Assembly: GCA_963820825.1 (NCBI GenBank)
Contig: CAWGBN010000005.1
Coordinates: forward strand, 96,001 to 160,000
Direction: 5' to 3'
Length of the DNA stretch: 64,000 nt
DNA from: Vulcanimicrobiota bacterium
Lineage (GTDB): Bacteria > Vulcanimicrobiota > Vulcanimicrobiia > Vulcanimicrobiales > Vulcanimicrobiaceae
Positions 35,138 through 42,360 of this stretch are shown here, in pieces; positions within the stretch are counted from its first letter, which is position 1, and the number at the start of each line of letters is the position of its first letter. Under the pieces are notes generated by a model that worked only from the letters and a program-made list of their open reading frames with translations, made no database searches and was not told the DNA's origin. Made by a program: the position numbers and the translations under genes.

Positions 35138-35509
35138 ATGGTTAGAGATGTTGCCTTCTTCGCTTACTCGGTTCGCGACGTCCCGCGGGCGCGCACCTTC
35201 TACGCGGAGACGCTCGGGCTTAAGGAAGGCCAGTCGTTCGGCGATCACTGGATCGAGTTCGACGTCGGCAACGTCACCTTCGGAATCGGTAACGGAGAGG
35301 GGTTGGGCTTCATCCCCGGCGCGTCGACCGGAGCGGCTTTCGAGGTTGACGATCTTCCGGCAATGCGCGAGCGTCTCAAAGCCGGCGGCGCCGAGGTTGG
35401 CGAGGTACTCGAGTTTCCGGCGTGCATTACCTGTTTTGCGCGCGACCCCGAAGGCAATCGTTTCGCGCTTCATCAGCGCCGGACGCCTGCCCCCGGGGAC
35501 GCCGCTTAG
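35138..35509 (+). CDS. VOC/glyoxalase family protein
   Basis: [14 protein letters not shown] and RDPEGN; GGGAGG RBS upstream. Confidence 0.88.
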
Positions 35510-35514
35510 CCGTT

Positions 35515-36660
35515 TTACGCCGAAGCGGTCTCCCGCGCGGCTTCGATGAGAATCGCGGCGACTTCCGGCCGCGAGAACTCCGGCGGCGGGAGTTGCCCGT
35601 TACGCAACATCTCGCGCACCTGGCCGTGCCGCTGAGCGTCACGTGGCTCTCCGGATCGTGATTGCAGGTCTTCTGTGAAGCCATCGACTGACAACGCCGG
35701 CAGTAGAAGCTGTTCTCGAACTTCAGCGGGGTGATACCGAGCTCTTCGGGCGTGAACTCGTCGAAGAGCTTCTGCGCGTCGTAGGTGCCGTAGTAGCTTC
35801 CCACGCCCGCGTGGTCGCGCCCGACGATGAAATGCGTGCAGCCGTGGTTCTTACGCATCATCGCATGGAAGATCGCTTCGCGCGGACCCGCGTAGCGCAT
35901 CGCCGCCGGCAGCGTGCTCAGCAGCACGCGATTCGCCGGATAGTAGTTCTCCAGCAGTGCCCGATAACAACGCATCCGGACGTCGGCCGGAATGTCGTCG
36001 CTCTTGGTCTCGCCGACGAGCGGATGGAGCAGTAAACCGTCGACCATCTCGAGCGCGCATTTCTGAATGTATTCGTGCGCGCGATGGACCGGATTGCGCG
36101 TCTGGAATCCGACGATCGTGTTCCAGCCGCGGCGTTCGAACTCGGCGCGCGTCTGCGCCGGTGAGAGGCTCTCCGGATCGTGCTCGCGTGCGAACACCCA
36201 AACCGGACCGCCGATGAGCACGTCCTTACGCCCGTAGACCGCAGCGACGCCGGGATGTTTCTCCTCTTCCGTGCGATAGACGTTTCGCGCTTCGTGCCGC
36301 TTGTCGGATTCGAAGACGTCCTCAACGTCGATGACTCCGCGTAGCTCGCCTTCGCCGTCGTAGAGTGCCGCCCGGCTTCCGACCGTCGGTGCCTCGTCGC
36401 GATCGACGGCCAAGACGACCGGAATGCTCCACGGCAATCCGTTCGCGAGGCGCATCGAGACGACGACGGTGATCGTAATCTTCGCGGCCCATGAAGCCAC
36501 CCAGGGGACTCAACGCGCCGTTAGCGATCAGCGCGAGGTCGTTGAGTTCGCGTGCGGTCAGCGTGAGGCTGCGAAGGCTCTTGCTCTCTTCGCGCAGCTC
36601 GGCTTCGTCCGCCGAAGCGACGGTCCGGTCGATGAGTTTGCCGCCGTGGGGAGCGATCAT
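35515..36660 (-). CDS. sat: Sulfate adenylyltransferase (Sat type), frameshifts near 36470 and 35623
   Basis: [43 protein letters not shown]. The tail QVREML...[10 protein letters not shown] ends at TAA 35515. Confidence 0.92.
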
Positions 36661-37209
36661 GATACCGCCTTCAATTCGATGCACGTGGCCGAGTCGCTCG
36701 AGCTCGGCGAGAATCTTGGAGACGCTCTCGTCGATGGTCTCGCTCTCGCTATCCACGACGATGTCGGGATTCTCCGGCGCTTCGTACGGATCGGAGACGC
36801 CGGTGAAGTGCTGCACTTCGCCGGCGATGGCCTTTTTGTAAAGGCCTTTGACGTCGCGGCGCACGAGCTCGTCCAAGGAACAGCGCACGTAGACTTCGAC
36901 GAAACGATCGTGTCCGATCCGCTGACGCGCCTCGGAGCGCGCCTGCGCGTACGGCGAGATTGCGGCCGTGATGACCGCGGCGTCGTGCCTCACCAAGAGC
37001 GAGGCGACGAACGAGATACGTCCGATATTGATGTCGCGATCCTCGCGGCTGAATCCGAGTCCTTTTGACAGATGGGTGCGGACTTCGTCGCCGTCGAGCA
37101 CTTCGACGTTCCGTCCGCGGGCCGAAAGCTCGGGTGCGAGTCGCTCGGCAATCGTGCTCTTACCGGCCCCGGACAGACCGGTAAGCCACACAGTGAATCC
37201 CTGGTTCAA
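36661..37209 (-). CDS. cysC: Adenylyl-sulfate kinase, in frame with the sat N-terminus (no stop between them)
   Basis: WLTGLSGAGKST, LDGDEVR, RDVKGLYKKA and FTGVSDPYEAP. TTG start at 37209 after AAGGA. Confidence 0.93.
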
Positions 37210-37347
37210 CTGGAGTTCCTTTCTGGAGGTGGATTTAAAAGGGCACCCATCACTCAAAAGGTGGACTTCTAAGGCGGACGTCCCCAGATGGCCGAATTCT
37301 TCGACCCCAGATTGTTGATTTCCGTCTACTTCCTAGCGCATCGCTGC

Positions 37348-39105
37348 TTAAGGCGCCTTAAACGAGAACTGCGCTGCATGGAGCCTCGCGTACGCCCCGC
37401 CGCGAGCCAGGAGCTCCTCGTGCGTCCCCACCTCGACGACCCGCCCGGCCTCGATGAACAGAACCTTGTGCGCGCGGCGCACGGTCGAGAGCCGATGGGC
37501 GATGATCAGCGTGGTGCGCCCGGGCAACAAACGATCGAGCGCCTGCTCGATCATCGCCTCCGAATGGCTGTCGAGCGCGCTGGTCGCCTCGTCGAGTATT
37601 AGGATCCGGGGGTCCCTCAGAACCGCGCGCGCGATGGCGATGCGCTGGCGCTCGCCGCCGGAGAGCCGCATCCCACGTTCGCCGACTTGAGTCGCGTAGC
37701 CATCCGGGAAGTTGCGCACGTACTCGTCGACGTTTGCATCCTGCGCGGCCGCCCGCACCTCCGCGTCGGATGCCTCGATCCTACCGTAGCGAATATTCTC
37801 CAGGATCGAACCGCGAAAGAGTTGCACGTCCTGCGGAACGATGGCGATCGCCTTACGCAGATCGTCCAGCCGCACTTTGGCGATGTCGAAACCGTCGAGC
37901 AGCACCCGTCCTTCCTGCGGCTCGTAGAAGCGCGGCACGAGATTGACGATCGTCGTCTTGCCCGCACCCGACGGACCGACGAGCGCCACGATCTCGCCGG
38001 CTTCGATCGTCGCGTTGACCTCGCGCAACGCGGGCGGATCGTCCGGGCGGTACCGAAAGGTTACGCCGGCGTATTCGATCCGGCCGCGCACCGAGGGAAG
38101 CGCAATCGCGCCCTCGGGTTCGCGCACCTCGACGGGCAGATCGAGCAACTCGAAGACCCGTCCCGCGCCGACGATCGCCTTGCTGATGTCGCCGAAGAAC
38201 GCGGCGACGCGGTTCATCGGGTTCATTAGATTCACCAGCAGCCCCCAGTACATGAAGACCCGCCCGGTATCGAGCCGTCCGACGAGCACCTCGCGCACCG
38301 AGAGCCACATGATGCCGACGACCGCGGCGACCATGATCGTCGAAACGACCAGCGGCTGCGTTTGAATGAACTGCGTCAGCTTCATGTAGGCACCGAAGAA
38401 GTCGTCGTTACGGCTGCGAAAGCGCGCAACTTCGAACTCCTCGCGCCCGAACGACTTGACCACGCGTTGGCCGCCGAGGATCTCGGAGAGATTCGCGGTG
38501 AGGTCGGCGATGCGCTGTTGAGCGCGGTGGGTGCTCGCCGAGATCAGATGCTGAAAGTTCGAGACGGCGAACGAAACGATCGGCGCAACGAGAACGAGCG
38601 AGATCGTCAGGAGCCAATCGAGGTAGATCATCGTCGCAAAAGACGAAATGAAGGTCGCGAGCGCGACGACGAGCTGCGGCACCGAAACGCTGACCGCATC
38701 GATCATTATCTGCAGATCCGTCGAGAACCGCGCAATCAACTCGCCGGGGCGCCACTTGTCGAACTCGCCCAGCGGCAGACTCAGGAGTCGGCTGAAGAGC
38801 CGCACGCGCAGCCGCGCGACCAAATGCTGCCCGCTCCACGCCGTGAGATAGGTCTGCCCGTAGATCGCGCAGTTGGCGAGCACGAGGGCGATCGACGTAA
38901 GGCCGAGTGAGAGATAGAGCGCCTTGAGGTCCGGCGCGCTGCCGTGCGGGGGAACGAGTACCTGGTTGATGATGATGCGAAAGGCCAGCGGGGGAACGAT
39001 CGAGAGAACGCCGGCGAGCACGCCCATCGCCATCGCAAGCCCGAGGCGCGGATAGTACGGACGCGCCTCGCGCGCCAACCGTACGAGAATGGAGCGGCGG
39101 CTCAT
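37348..39105 (-). CDS. ABC exporter, fused TMD-NBD (MsbA-like)
   Basis: TM domain, GPSGAGKT, LSGGERQR, ILDEATS and IAHRLST. Confidence 0.92.
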   Translation of the reverse strand: MSRRSILVRLAREARPYYPRLGLAMAMGVLAGVLSIVPPLAFRIIINQVLVPPHGSAPDLKALYLSLGLTSIALVLANCAIYGQTYLTAWSGQHLVARLRVRLFSRLLSLPLGEFDKWRPGELIARFSTDLQIMIDAVSVSVPQLVVALATFISSFATMIYLDWLLTISLVLVAPIVSFAVSNFQHLISASTHRAQQRIADLTANLSEILGGQRVVKSFGREEFEVARFRSRNDDFFGAYMKLTQFIQTQPLVVSTIMVAAVVGIMWLSVREVLVGRLDTGRVFMYWGLLVNLMNPMNRVAAFFGDISKAIVGAGRVFELLDLPVEVREPEGAIALPSVRGRIEYAGVTFRYRPDDPPALREVNATIEAGEIVALVGPSGAGKTTIVNLVPRFYEPQEGRVLLDGFDIAKVRLDDLRKAIAIVPQDVQLFRGSILENIRYGRIEASDAEVRAAAQDANVDEYVRNFPDGYATQVGERGMRLSGGERQRIAIARAVLRDPRILILDEATSALDSHSEAMIEQALDRLLPGRTTLIIAHRLSTVRRAHKVLFIEAGRVVEVGTHEELLARGGAYARLHAAQFSFKAP

Positions 39106-39220
39106 CGCGGCAGGAGGCTGCAAAACCTCTGGGCTCTTGCCGCCGCCGCGCGGTGAAACCTCCCCCCGTGCGCTCCGGTACGTGATGGTGGCAAAAGATT
39201 CGGAGGATCGCGAAACGCAC

Positions 39221-39787
39221 ATGGACTGCTATTTTCACTCGAACGTACCGTCGGTCGCACCGTGTACCGACTGCGGAAAGCCGATCTGCGCGACCTGTCG
39301 CGACGAACGCGGCGGCTGCCCGAGTTGCCGCCTTGCGGCAAAGGTCGAAGCGGCAACGGCGACCCGCCGGCAAATCGCCGGTTCGGTCCCTCCGCGCCCC
39401 GCGCCGGCAAGCGTTCGGGGCACGGCAACGATCGCGACGGCGCCCGATCCGGTGGAATCGCGCGCGCTCGTCGCGCTCGGTTACCCGCTCTGGCCGTTGG
39501 CCCTACTCTCGCTGCTCGACCGGAAGCAATCGCGCAATCTGCGCCGCCAGGCGTTTCAGGCGCTCGGCTTCAACGTCGGCTTCTTCGGTTTCTGGGGACT
39601 CCTCTCGCTGCTCGCGCAAGTGCCGTTCCTCGGATTCTCGGCTTGGGTGCTGGTGCCGCTGCTCGCGCCGCTCTTTCTGGTCGCGAGCGTTTACTACGGA
39701 ATCAAGACGTGGAACGGCGACGAGGTTCGCATCCCCGTCGTCACGAGCTGGATCGACGAGCGCATGCCTAACGGAGCTGCCGATTAA
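39221..39787 (+). CDS. B-box-type zinc finger + C-terminal membrane domain (DUF4870-like)
   Basis: CYFH-x7-CTDCGKPICATC...CPSC, then TM helices. GGAGG upstream of the ATG. Confidence 0.7.
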   Translation: MDCYFHSNVPSVAPCTDCGKPICATCRDERGGCPSCRLAAKVEAATATRRQIAGSVPPRPAPASVRGTATIATAPDPVESRALVALGYPLWPLALLSLLDRKQSRNLRRQAFQALGFNVGFFGFWGLLSLLAQVPFLGFSAWVLVPLLAPLFLVASVYYGIKTWNGDEVRIPVVTSWIDERMPNGAAD

Positions 39788-41198
39788 ACTCGCGATAGCG
39801 GCCTAGAAAGGCGCGCGCCGCCGCGCCATGGTCGATCGCCGCCGGCGGATAGGCGTCGGCGGCGTAGAGGCCCAGCGCGAGCTGCGGAGAGTTCGGCGGA
39901 CGCCCGTACCACGCATCGAGCGGAACGTCGCGCAGCTCCGGTATCCAGCGCCGGACGTAGATGCCGACCGGGTCGTACCGCCGGCGTTGCCGCTCGGGAT
40001 TGTAGATGCGCGGATACTGCGCCATGTCCGCGCCGACGCCCGCGATCCACTGCCAGTTACCGTCGGCCAGCGCCGGCTCGTCCTCGATGAGCCGGCGATC
40101 CCACTCGTCGCGACCGGCACGCCAATCGACGCCTAAGTCGAAACAGAGAAACGAGGCCGCGACCGCGCGTACGTGCGGATGCATCCATCCTGTCGCGTGC
40201 AACTGGCGAATGCCCGCATCGACGAACGGATACCCGGTCTTGCCCGCGCGCCACGCGTCCAAGAGCGGGTGCGACGATTCCCAGCGAAAGCCGCGCATCT
40301 TCTCCTGGAGCGGCTCGTCTTGCGTCTCCGGATAGAACCAGGCGAGTTGGAGGAAGAAATCGCGATGCGCGAGCGATCGCAGAAAGAGACGCAGCGAGAG
40401 ACGCTCCTCGCTGAGCGCGAACGGGTCGTCGAGGCGCTCGCGGACGGCACGCGCGATCGTGCGCGCAGCGATCGTCCCGAAGGAGAGTTCGGCCGCGAGG
40501 TGCGAGGTGCGGTCGTCGCCCGGCGCCGTTGCCGCGACTGCATAGAGTGCCGCATCTTCACGGAGAAAGCGTTCGAAACGCCGCCGGGCGATCGCGGCTC
40601 CGGCCTCGATAGCGCCCTTGCTTCCACCGAACTCCTCCGGCATCGGGAGCGGCTCGCTCGCTGCCTCGGTGCGGACGAATCGCAGCAGCAGCGGAGACTC
40701 GTGTGACGCAATCGGCAGCCTTCCCCAGGCTTCGAAATACGGGGCAAAGGCGCGGTAGGATCCGCCCGCACTATGCTCCGCGGCGCTCTCCTCGGGCGCG
40801 ACCACCGGCGCATCGTGCACGACGAGTGCTTCATACCCGGCCTCTTCCAACTGCGATGCGACGCGCCGGTCGCGCGTAATTCCATCGCGATCGTAGGCCG
40901 CGCTCCACGCCACACCGCTCGCCGCGAGCTCCCGTGCGACGCGGGCGAGCACCTCTTCCGGCTCGCCGCGAAGCACGAGCAAACGGCTTCCGCGCTCCTC
41001 GAGCTCGCCCGACAACGCGGCGAGCGCGCTGCAAAAGAACTCGGCTCGACGCGGCGAGGCCGCAAGGCGCTCGCGCATCGCCGAATCGATCACGAGCAAC
41101 GGCAGCACCGGACCGCGTGAAGCGGCCGCAGCTAGTCCGGCGTGATCGTCGAGGCGCAGATCTTTGGTAAAACGGTAGACAAACGGCCTCTCCGCCAT
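39768..41198 (-). CDS. Photolyase/cryptochrome family flavoprotein with an atypical substrate pocket
   Basis: DLRLDDH, GKTGYPFVDAGIRQL, DWR, WQW, RIYNP and RRWIPEL. Confidence 0.9.
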   Translation of the reverse strand: MAERPFVYRFTKDLRLDDHAGLAAAASRGPVLPLLVIDSAMRERLAASPRRAEFFCSALAALSGELEERGSRLLVLRGEPEEVLARVARELAASGVAWSAAYDRDGITRDRRVASQLEEAGYEALVVHDAPVVAPEESAAEHSAGGSYRAFAPYFEAWGRLPIASHESPLLLRFVRTEAASEPLPMPEEFGGSKGAIEAGAAIARRRFERFLREDAALYAVAATAPGDDRTSHLAAELSFGTIAARTIARAVRERLDDPFALSEERLSLRLFLRSLAHRDFFLQLAWFYPETQDEPLQEKMRGFRWESSHPLLDAWRAGKTGYPFVDAGIRQLHATGWMHPHVRAVAASFLCFDLGVDWRAGRDEWDRRLIEDEPALADGNWQWIAGVGADMAQYPRIYNPERQRRRYDPVGIYVRRWIPELRDVPLDAWYGRPPNSPQLALGLYAADAYPPAAIDHGAAARAFLGRYREFNRQLR

Positions 41199-41239: not shown

Positions 41240-41836
41240 CTAGTGCGCCGGCGCGTTCAGCTTATAGTGCGCGCGCATCGCCGCGCGGCAGATCGACTCG
41301 TCCAGGGTCGCATTTCCAGAGCTCTTTGCGACGCTGCATCCCACCGGGATTCCGCGTGCGTTCACGTTGACTCGAAGCGTCGCCGCAAGCGTCGCCGGCG
41401 CTCCGAGCGCGAGCGATTCGGCCCGGCCTTCGCGGTGCGGCACGGTCTGCGTGCTCAACGCGGCAATCGCGCGCGCTTCTTGCGCCGGGACGCTGCGCTG
41501 CGCGACCGGCGCCGGCTGCGGTTGCTCGATCGCGCGGACACCGACGACCACCGCGATCGCCGCAGCCAGTGCGGCGACGGCCGTCCAGCCGAATCGCCGC
41601 GAGGTTTTTCGGGCGAATGCCGCGCGCAGATCCGGCTCCCACCGTTCGTCGTCGCGCGCGCGCGCAATCCCCAGCATCACGCGTTCGATCTCGCGCTCGC
41701 CGCCGAGCTCGTTGAGACACCGCGCGCATCCGGCGAGGTGGCTCCGGTAGGTTTCGCGTTCGAGGTCGCCGGCTTCGCCGATGGCGATCGCTCCGGCGAG
41801 CCGTTCGATCGTGCCGCAATCCGTTCGAGCACTCAT
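41240..41836 (-). CDS. Zinc-finger anti-sigma factor with a TM helix and a C-terminal TonB-like domain
   Basis: HLAGCARC (HxxxCxxC), hydrophobic WTAVAALAAAIAVVVGV, C-terminal VNARG...VAKSSGNATLDESICRAA. 4-nt overlap with the sigma gene. Confidence 0.8.
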   Translation of the reverse strand: MSARTDCGTIERLAGAIAIGEAGDLERETYRSHLAGCARCLNELGGEREIERVMLGIARARDDERWEPDLRAAFARKTSRRFGWTAVAALAAAIAVVVGVRAIEQPQPAPVAQRSVPAQEARAIAALSTQTVPHREGRAESLALGAPATLAATLRVNVNARGIPVGCSVAKSSGNATLDESICRAAMRAHYKLNAPAH

Positions 41837-42360
41837 CGATCGATACTCTCCTTCATAGTTGTCCGCAGGACGCGCATCGCACGACAGACCCGCTGACGAA
41901 CGGCGTCCGAGGTCGTGCCGAGAATTGCCGCGGCCTCCGACGACGAATAACCGGCATAGCTCGTCAAGAGCAGTGCCGCCGATTGTTCGGGGGGCAGGCG
42001 CATGAGCGCCGCTTGCAGGTCGAGCGACGCGGCGCTGCGCTCGTCGACGCGCCACTCGCTTCGATCGATCTCACGATCGAGCGGGAGCACGCGAAGAATC
42101 TTCTTCCGCCGTAAAAACGAGATCGCGGCGTTCGTCGCGGCGCGGTAGAGCCAGCCCGCGCTCAGCTCGCGCTGCGGATCGGCTTGCAGCATGCGATAGG
42201 CCGACAGAAAGACGTCCTGCGTCAGATCGAGCGCGACCTCAGCGTCGCCGACCATCCGCCGGACGTATCGTGCCAGCTTCGTCTGGTACTCGAGAACGAG
42301 CGACTCGACGCGCGCTGACGCGACTGCCGTTGGTTCGCCCGTCACCCGGACCGCGTCCAT
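41833..42360 (-). CDS. ECF sigma factor
   Basis: DLTQDVFL and WLYRAATN (region 2); LP...YSSSEAAAILG...VRQRVCRA (region 4). Confidence 0.92.
   Translation of the reverse strand: MDAVRVTGEPTAVASARVESLVLEYQTKLARYVRRMVGDAEVALDLTQDVFLSAYRMLQADPQRELSAGWLYRAATNAAISFLRRKKILRVLPLDREIDRSEWRVDERSAASLDLQAALMRLPPEQSAALLLTSYAGYSSSEAAAILGTTSDAVRQRVCRAMRVLRTTMKESIDR

Follow-up and report, generated by a model that had tools for sequence, protein, structure and literature searches.

The 64,000-nucleotide stretch analysed here (the window), positions 96,001 to 160,000 of contig CAWGBN010000005.1 in the Vulcanimicrobiota assembly GCA_963820825.1, encodes on its minus strand a photolyase-family protein of 476 amino acids, P0001 (window positions 41198 to 39768). 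Across the families of the class Vulcanimicrobiia compared here (f1, f2 and f3), the orthologues of P0001 share an intact photolyase fold, have lost the repair residues, have kept the loop that binds the phosphates of flavin adenine dinucleotide (FAD) together with the lid, and combine a remodelled lesion pocket with a newly gained hexapeptide resembling those bound by the beta sliding clamp. These features suggest a repair-dead photolyase that docks on the clamp, DnaN, at sites of DNA replication or damage, where it would act as a scaffold or sensor and need not respond to light, a reading that we regard as evenly poised between being right and wrong.

Gene and protein fold

The minus-strand frame is open throughout, without internal stops, in agreement with an earlier sequence-only reading of this DNA, and the plus-strand frame over 39768..41198 is interrupted by stops. 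Domain matches to PF00875 and PF03441 (117 and 200 bits, respectively) both exceed the cut-offs, the AlphaFold2 model has a predicted local distance difference test (pLDDT) score of 94.8, and Foldseek matches the fold to that of the A. nidulans photolyase 1qnf with a template modelling score of 0.90. By its domains and fold, P0001 is thus a member of the photolyase/cryptochrome superfamily. None of the NCBIfam photolyase or cryptochrome models reaches its cut-off on P0001; for NF007955, the score was 222 bits against a cut-off of 506, and as a canonical paralogue also falls below this value (425 bits), the cut-off test does not discriminate. The ESM Atlas search returned generic photolyase clusters only. 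P0001 is the sole PF03441/PF00875 family member found in the genome of the window (G000), which is 85 % complete.

Loss of the repair residues

Residues were called against E. coli Phr (from NC_000913.3 and PDB 1dnp). The alignment contains each of the substitutions that the sequence-only reading had listed for P0001, namely R226A, E274S, W277H, N341P, R342H, M345A and N378A, with none of the canonical residues restored, and it confirms that W306, W359, W382, W384, R344 and the GKTGYP.VDA motif are kept. P0001 further differs from E. coli Phr by W271F, Y281F, F366W, D372E, A377L, G381N and F396P, with D372E placed at the salt-bridge partner of R344. The loss of E274 and W277 falls in a remodelled lesion-pocket helix, FLRSLAHRDF (residues 272–281; 40356..40385, all P0001 features being on the minus strand), which has a new, near-invariant arginine at the site of E. 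coli N273, while N341P, R342H and M345A lie in the segment HPHVRA (340–345; 40164..40181), where R344 is kept in P0001 and lost in f3.

The substitutions are conserved in orthologues. Among 120 close homologues, P341 occurs in 119, A345 in 115 and A378 in 116, and the E274 site holds alanine or serine in all 120; with such near-fixation the substitutions are not due to chance. Seven repair sites (R226, E/Q274, W277, N341, R342, M345 and N378) were scored in 76 orthologue loci, each from a different published genome (47 in f1, three in f2 and 26 in f3), and in 26 canonical loci (23 from the class and three from family f19, one fragment and three unpublished loci having been dropped). All 76 orthologues keep between zero and two of the seven sites, with none kept in P0001, versus seven of seven in all 26 canonical loci. 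Nearly every orthologue has other residues in place of W277, N341, M345 and N378, which the canonical relatives keep, and within the clade the pocket residues vary, with Gln, Met, Arg, Leu or His at 277 and Trp or Arg at 384. According to PMC7736829, repair depends on E274 and N341, and PMC9356274 names Asn378 as a residue that enzymes acting on cyclobutane pyrimidine dimers (CPDs), DASH enzymes and (6-4) enzymes have in common.

The dismantling of the CPD pocket is therefore not particular to P0001, and the earlier statement that the protein matches neither (6-4) photolyase nor Cry-DASH was also upheld. Two catalytic histidines, at the N341 and M345 sites, typify the eukaryotic-type (6-4) photolyases; P0001 has P341 and A345, and no histidine was tallied at either site in the 76 loci. 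The Cry-DASH model TIGR02765 scores 162 bits on P0001 against a cut-off of 317, and the protein has Ala378 and Leu377 rather than Asn378 and Ser377. It is likewise unlike plant cryptochromes, with alanine rather than aspartate at 378 (aligned with position 396 of AtCRY1 and 393 of AtCRY2 by ungapped offset) and a TIGR02766 score of 187 against 604 bits. PF04244, the FeS-BCP/CryPro family, is unmatched in P0001 and in G000. In the AlphaFold2 model the protein ends at the foot helix, and a C-terminal extension is missing. Taken together, the residue patterns indicate that the clade has very probably lost both CPD and (6-4) repair.

Distribution and evolution

We searched 250 other genomes of the phylum with a profile built from 47 close homologues, accepting E-values below 1e-90. 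Orthologues were found in 155/160 genomes of f1, 3/3 of f2 and 17/18 of f3, or 175/181 genomes of the class, and in none of the 69 phylum genomes outside it, where the best matches (loci L014, L015 and L034) are canonical by sequence. A canonical-scoring paralogue is present in 56/181 class genomes and in 3/50 in the genus of the window, and coexists with the repair-dead gene in 54 of these 56. These tallies include seven unpublished genomes (G128, G213, G231, G233, G238, G246 and G248), without which the figures are 170/174 and 52/174. FeS-type photolyases pass the cut-off in 8/121 genomes. The closest relatives of P0001 are labelled Ca. Cybelea, Baltobacteraceae or Eremiobacteraeota/Vulcanimicrobiota, with a few close relatives under other NCBI labels (Dormibacteraeota, Binatia, Babeliales, Verrucomicrobiia and Acidoferrales). 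A search of 1.84 billion representatives yielded clade members or their fragments, or canonical proteins with N341, R344, D372 and N378, with rare single exceptions, and no intermediates between the two occurred among the best 150 matches.

In a quick maximum likelihood (ML) tree of 75 rows, the orthologues form one clade of 18 with a Shimodaira-Hasegawa-like approximate likelihood ratio test (SH-aLRT) support of 100, split into f3 versus f2 plus f1, and its divisions follow the families. The clade is nested among the class I/III canonical rows and descends from the class I/III radiation, though the quick tree does not single out one sister group. Ratios of non-synonymous to synonymous substitution (dN/dS) are between 0.07 and 0.09 in the four closest f3 pairs. 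The medians are 0.31 in f1 (756/1081 pairs), 0.20 in f2 (3/3), 0.28 in f3 (183/276) and 0.36 in the canonical proteins (190/325), all of them upper bounds since dS saturates in this GC-rich DNA. The sequence-only reading had allowed that the gene might be decaying; the presence in 175/181 genomes, the single clade and the low dN/dS rule this out, and the changes are conserved under selection. The gene is an old, vertically inherited and selected core gene. One orthologue (L132, G036:C1:2452500-2459000) is interrupted, with one TGA in the match and a frame that lacks the N-terminal part; this genome also has a canonical photolyase. Viral carriage was considered and rejected: the best 80 of 103 viral matches are 23–37 % identical and none is clade-like, as judged by identity only.

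The clamp-binding-like hexapeptide

Residues 439–445 of P0001 read QLALGLY (39864..39884), and the hexapeptide QLALGL (439–444), which the sequence-only reading had not mentioned, is conserved and fits the second of the published clamp consensus forms, Q-phi-x-[L/M]-[F/L] and Q-phi-x-[L/M]-x-[F/L] (bioRxiv 10.1101/2025.08.20.671105). The clade hexamers QLALGL, QLALPL and QVELGF resemble the known QLVLGL, QLSLPL and QVELEF, which are among the hexamers measured on clamps (bioRxiv 10.64898/2026.05.27.728225; PMC5397184). The motif was counted in a 50-residue window after the lid, in which the published hexamer is expected by chance with a frequency of 0.005, and also in a relaxed form that allows methionine or threonine at position 2 and phenylalanine at position 4. 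The published form occurs in 118/119 close homologues (one of the 120 lacks the region; relaxed, 119), in 58/76 loci (37/47 in f1, 1/3 in f2 and 20/26 in f3; relaxed, 70/76, with 41, three and 26, respectively), and in 81 of 108 further f3 homologues (relaxed, 105). It is missing from E. coli Phr, from all 26 canonical loci and from all 112 canonical representatives with the region (13 of 125 lack it). As these counts come from related homologues, they show the conservation of one ancestral gain rather than many independent events.

Across 123 rows, Q439 is kept in 119, L442 in 120 and leucine or phenylalanine at 444 in 122, while the linker preceding the hexapeptide ranges from 11 to 18 residues. 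The clasp loop that carries it has the lowest pLDDT in both available models, 66–75 in P0001 and 66–76 in P0358 (DLM53_08590), the f3 orthologue of Ca. Eremiobacter antarcticus. Conserved anchors, a variable linker and a low-confidence loop are the profile of a short linear motif. G000 encodes a single, ordinary DnaN, and its DinB, DnaE1 and MutS bear ordinary clamp-motif-like peptides. From the motif pattern, we think it somewhat probable that the hexapeptide truly binds the clamp.

Flavin site, tryptophans and clade-specific motifs

The FAD pyrophosphate- and adenine-binding segment, Y219 to A235 in P0001 (40494..40544), is kept apart from the replacement of R226 by alanine, and the equivalent E. 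coli residues Y222, T234, S235 and L237 are retained in 76, 75, 72 and 73 of the 76 loci, respectively. The kept phosphate loop suggests that P0001 may bind FAD. The lid residues R397, N400 and Q404 are also retained in the clade. In the flavin-tuning segment (372–384; 40047..40085), P0001 has E372, L377, A378, N381, W382 and W384. Leucine or isoleucine occupies site 377 in 71/76 loci and asparagine site 381 in 76/76, while site 378 holds alanine in 48/50 f1 and f2 loci and cysteine in 26/26 f3 loci and 104/108 further f3 homologues. A bulky residue at 377, Asn381 and Cys378 are associated with animal cryptochromes, Cys378 being the residue of the type I animal proteins (PMC9356274). By this pattern the flavin-tuning sites look cryptochrome-like; f3, with its C378, has the animal-type set, while P0001 has L377, A378 and N381. 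In f3, W384 is replaced by arginine in 13/26 loci. Glutamate is found at the E. coli E109 site in 24/26 f3 loci, with histidine or an aromatic residue at 292; we take these to be the folate antenna sites, and the residues hint at an antenna site retained in f3, without a counterpart in f1 and f2.

The electron-transfer tryptophans are less uniform. The medial W359 (40122..40124) and W382 are present in 76/76 loci, whereas the distal W306 (40281..40283) is found in 94/120 close homologues and in only 20/76 loci (4/47 in f1, 0/3 in f2 and 16/26 in f3), and the triad is generally needed for efficient photoreduction (PMC11362059). The intact triad proposed in the sequence-only reading is thus a property of P0001 and not of the family. 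P0001 also has the R344 bridge, with glutamate replacing aspartate. R344 is kept in 49/76 loci, and the R344–E372 pair is kept generally in f1 and f2, although both residues are lost at one f1 locus (L120). R344 is missing from all 26 f3 loci and all 108 further f3 homologues, and Ala372 occurs in 13/26 and 42/108 of these. Residue 372 corresponds, by an ungapped offset of 15, to D387 of AtCRY2, the D387A variant of which is without FAD (PMC12661439). Because the class can do without W306 and the salt bridge, photoreduction is probably not needed for the conserved core function; photochemistry is plausible in P0001 but is unlikely to account for the conservation of the gene class-wide.

Additional conserved features are distributed over the protein. 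In the N-terminal alpha/beta domain (PF00875, residues 7–159; 40722..41180), R50, P135 and a G-Y-R loop (147–149) are conserved in the clade. A conserved, clade-specific insert, DPFALSEER (258–266; 40401..40427), is seen in the homologue alignments, and its position probably matches that of the protrusion motif of cryptochromes described in PMC11362059. The motif LQEKM (297–301; 40296..40310) is likewise conserved and clade-specific.

Proposed function and alternatives

In the reading that we favour, a repair-dead photolyase has been reused as a sliding-clamp client. The hexapeptide would dock in the DnaN pocket and so hold the protein on clamps at the fork or in its wake, where the former lesion pocket, rimmed by the newly conserved R274, DPFxLxEER, LQEKM and P396, may take up a lesion, a particular DNA structure or a peptide from a partner. 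Dimers would not be split; the protein would instead recruit or block factors of repair or replication, or signal to them, as a constitutive, clamp-docked pseudo-enzyme, and in f1 and f2, which keep R344–E372, the flavin may tune the docked protein by light or redox state. The clamp-like hexapeptide points to DNA replication and repair; we infer the docking, the ligand and the outcome. An extended version, speculative and unlikely, would make the clade a cryptochrome that arose from a CPD photolyase, the third such independent origin, here a bacterial, replisome-wired flavin switch for light or redox that sits on the beta clamp via the clasp loop and controls replication or the tolerance of lesions class-wide in slow-growing soil bacteria, with one family converged on the insect-type L377/C378/N381 and NewCRY possibly gaining clamp hooks in parallel.

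Several observations weigh against a clamp-docked role. Hexamers bind some clamps 10–20 times more weakly (bioRxiv 10.64898/2026.05.27.728225), and the region equivalent to the clasp forms an oligomer interface in plant cryptochromes (PMC11362059), so that the hexapeptide may serve another partner. Of the 47 loci in f1, six deviate from the hexamer, five of these having lost the glutamine, and many f3 members have threonine at its second position; part of the low pLDDT of the loop may be explained by canonical rows in the alignments. The catalytic domain is no more basic than that of canonical photolyases, and R226 and K154 are mostly lost in the orthologues. No repair or replication gene occurs among the conserved immediate neighbours, and an exact SOS box was found in none of 71 regions upstream of the photolyase-like gene.

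The sequence-only reading had proposed a cryptochrome-like photoreceptor. In such a receptor, light would reduce oxidised FAD via W382 and W359, the R344–E372 bridge would move, and a partner would be taken up or let go. The cryptochrome-like flavin-tuning sites, the invariant W359 and W382, the kept phosphate loop and the full triad of P0001 are in keeping with this role, and the clamp motif could be the output. Blue, green and red light all elicit phototaxis in V. alpinus WC8-2, a cultured member of the class (PMC9758169); yet the text and six supplements of that paper name photoactive yellow protein (PYP) and rhodopsin and nowhere photolyase or cryptochrome. With W306 and R344 unconserved, Ala372 frequent in f3 and no C-terminal extension, light reception is unlikely as the main function. 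Quite unlikely, too, is a scaffold unconnected with DNA, with the fold as a protein- or RNA-binding module in the manner of mt-SAF35 or type II cryptochromes and the hexapeptide mediating self-oligomerisation or binding another partner. The single-copy core distribution, the dispensable flavin signatures, the new conserved surface motifs, the precedent of a photolyase-fold ribosome assembly factor (PMC8784144) and the plant cryptochrome interface in the clasp region would all fit such a role, but it is exactly the clamp-defining positions (Q1, L4 and L/F6) that are kept while others vary freely, and the motif occurs in none of the canonical photolyases.

We consider it likewise quite unlikely that the protein is a clamp-coupled, flavin-dependent repair enzyme for a lesion other than CPDs or (6-4) photoproducts. 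About two-thirds of the class genomes are without a canonical photolyase, FeS-type enzymes are few, UvdE was not seen in G000, and the clade retains both the FAD phosphate loop and the lid residues; however, the pocket residues vary freely at 277 and 384, unlike those of an active site, N378 is called crucial for repair in the title of a reference cited by PMC9356274, and a bulky residue at 377 disfavours the fully reduced flavin (PMC9356274). It is extremely improbable that the protein is simply a CPD photolyase of the ordinary kind whose residues happen to be unusual. In favour of this stand its source name of deoxyribodipyrimidine photo-lyase, the grouping of a clade member with class I in the Emmerich network (PMC7736829) and the frequent status of the gene as sole family member in a genome; against it stand the replacement of W277, N341, M345 and N378 in nearly all orthologues and the coexistence of the two paralogues in 54 of the 56 genomes that carry a canonical one.

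Comparison with known systems

With the class I/III CPD photolyases (E. coli Phr 1dnp, A. nidulans 1qnf/1tez and Agrobacterium PhrA 4u63), the clade has in common the two-domain fold at approximately 33 % identity, the FAD phosphate loop, W359, W382, R397, Q404 and its origin. It differs from them by the loss of E274, W277, N341, M345 and N378, by D372E and by an optional W306, while the insert, LQEKM and the clamp-like hexapeptide are new in the clade; in the same genomes the clade gene is core and the canonical paralogue patchy. Like type I animal and plant cryptochromes, the clade has lost the repair residues and has a bulky residue 377 and Asn381, and it shares with the type I proteins Cys378 (in f3) and, likely, a partner-binding pocket. 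It differs from these cryptochromes in its independent bacterial origin, the lack of a C-terminal tail, the unconserved distal tryptophan, alanine rather than aspartate or cysteine at 378 in f1 and f2, and the loss of the Arg–Asp bridge in f3.

NewCRY is also bacterial and without E274 and N341, and in both groups any function is putative. However, Table S1 of Emmerich et al. 2020 (PMC7736829) assigns the clade orthologue P0358 to class I, not to NewCRY, and in the quick ML tree the clade stands apart from L056 and L057, which are probably NewCRY by their motifs. NewCRY accompanies a repair photolyase in 95 % of species (PMC7736829), whereas the clade gene mostly stands alone in its genome. 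The NewCRY-like protein at L057:5304-7004 (+), from a genome of another class of the phylum (G070), has a clamp-like tail, QGQLF, of a type not present in its relative L056.

Known beta-clamp clients, such as Pol IV (QLVLGL), Hda (QLSLPL) and Pol III alpha (QVELEF), carry on a flexible loop the Q-phi-x-L-x-L/F pattern that the clade shares, where the loop is predicted to be flexible. In the clade, the carrier of the motif is a photolyase fold rather than a polymerase or AAA+ protein, and DnaN binding is putative. A functional analogue is ImuB, an inactive polymerase that serves as a clamp scaffold. The reuse of the photolyase fold beyond repair and light, proposed for the clade, is paralleled by trypanosome mt-SAF35, a mitoribosome assembly factor (PMC8784144), which is unlike the clade in being a eukaryotic mitoribosome factor and only a distant match (7pua, E 1e-19).

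A full-text literature search pairing photolyase with Eremiobacterota returned nothing, most subscription journals being outside its coverage, and the clade goes unmentioned in literature listings on new photolyase subfamilies, NewCRY, uncultured clades and Vulcanimicrobium. Through the member listed in Table S1, the clade had been sampled there yet was unrecognised. A link between photolyases and clamp motifs was absent from the papers checked by term, PMC11253446 among them, and no literature search was aimed at that pairing. The clade is a real and apparently undescribed subfamily.

Genomic neighbourhood and regulation

A convergent gene for a DUF4870 membrane protein (39221..39787, plus strand), a conserved neighbour, overlaps the 3' end of the P0001 gene by 20 nt; the N-terminus of its product has a Cys/His-rich, zinc-finger-like segment. 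Past it, downstream of P0001, lies an MsbA-like ATP-binding cassette (ABC) exporter gene (37348..39222, minus strand), present in 28/31 loci, for which the adjacency is probably conserved gene order only. At 35427–37257 (minus strand), a fused adenosine phosphosulfate (APS) kinase/ATP sulfurylase appears to be split over two overlapping open reading frames (ORFs), with the halves of its PUA_2 domain in different frames through a frameshift or sequencing error.

On the other side, a gene that ends 41 nt upstream of P0001 (41240..41836, minus strand) probably encodes an anti-sigma factor. Its product matches no family itself, and its orthologues join zf-HC2 to a TonB C-terminal domain (TonB_C). 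It is preceded by a gene for an extracytoplasmic function (ECF) sigma factor (41833..42360, minus strand), and control of P0001 by this factor was rejected as it is a neighbour in part of f1 only. The anti-sigma gene occupies the spot which in most relatives is held by a gene for a monohaem lipoprotein-type cytochrome c. The latter is directly upstream and co-oriented in 60/76 loci (within L058-L135, L053-L055 and L066-L093) versus 0/26 canonical loci, and abuts the orthologue start in most f1 cases; several of the f3 spacers contain terminator-like hairpins, as judged by eye. No close match to the cytochrome was found in G000 or in four of five other genomes tested; it is thus not required, and a redox partnership with it as the core function was rejected, its lipoprotein-type signal peptide (by eye) placing it in another compartment.

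SOS control was rejected because exact SOS boxes are absent from the 71 upstream regions, although lexA and imuA carry one, and the gene is thus probably constitutive; exact boxes were also absent from all 60 regions upstream of the cytochrome c gene. No motif common to the upstream regions of the orthologues emerged, and a sigma-70 scan was empty. Elsewhere in G000, the palindrome TGCCA-N6-TGGCA is found upstream of lexA and recA (G000:C8:228123 and C7:81096), with six copies in the genome, and may be a second DNA-damage operator, separate from an SOS-like box, GAAC-N4-GTTC, at lexA and imuA. An ImuA/ImuB/DnaE2-like mutagenesis cassette, so named from a DnaE match and ORF starts, lies at G000:C2:153009-158045 (minus strand) with an SOS-like box upstream.

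Conclusions

Database annotation credits essentially all genomes of a widespread class of soil bacteria with a UV-repair photolyase on account of this gene. With that label on a repair-dead gene, photoreactivation is probably over-called in approximately two-thirds of the genomes of the class. The clade also provides a natural series for the transition from photolyase to cryptochrome, with W306 present or absent, alanine or cysteine at 378, and the salt bridge kept or lost. If the proposed role is true, a core, repair-dead photolyase with a clamp peptide would tie the photolyase/cryptochrome fold directly to the bacterial replisome.

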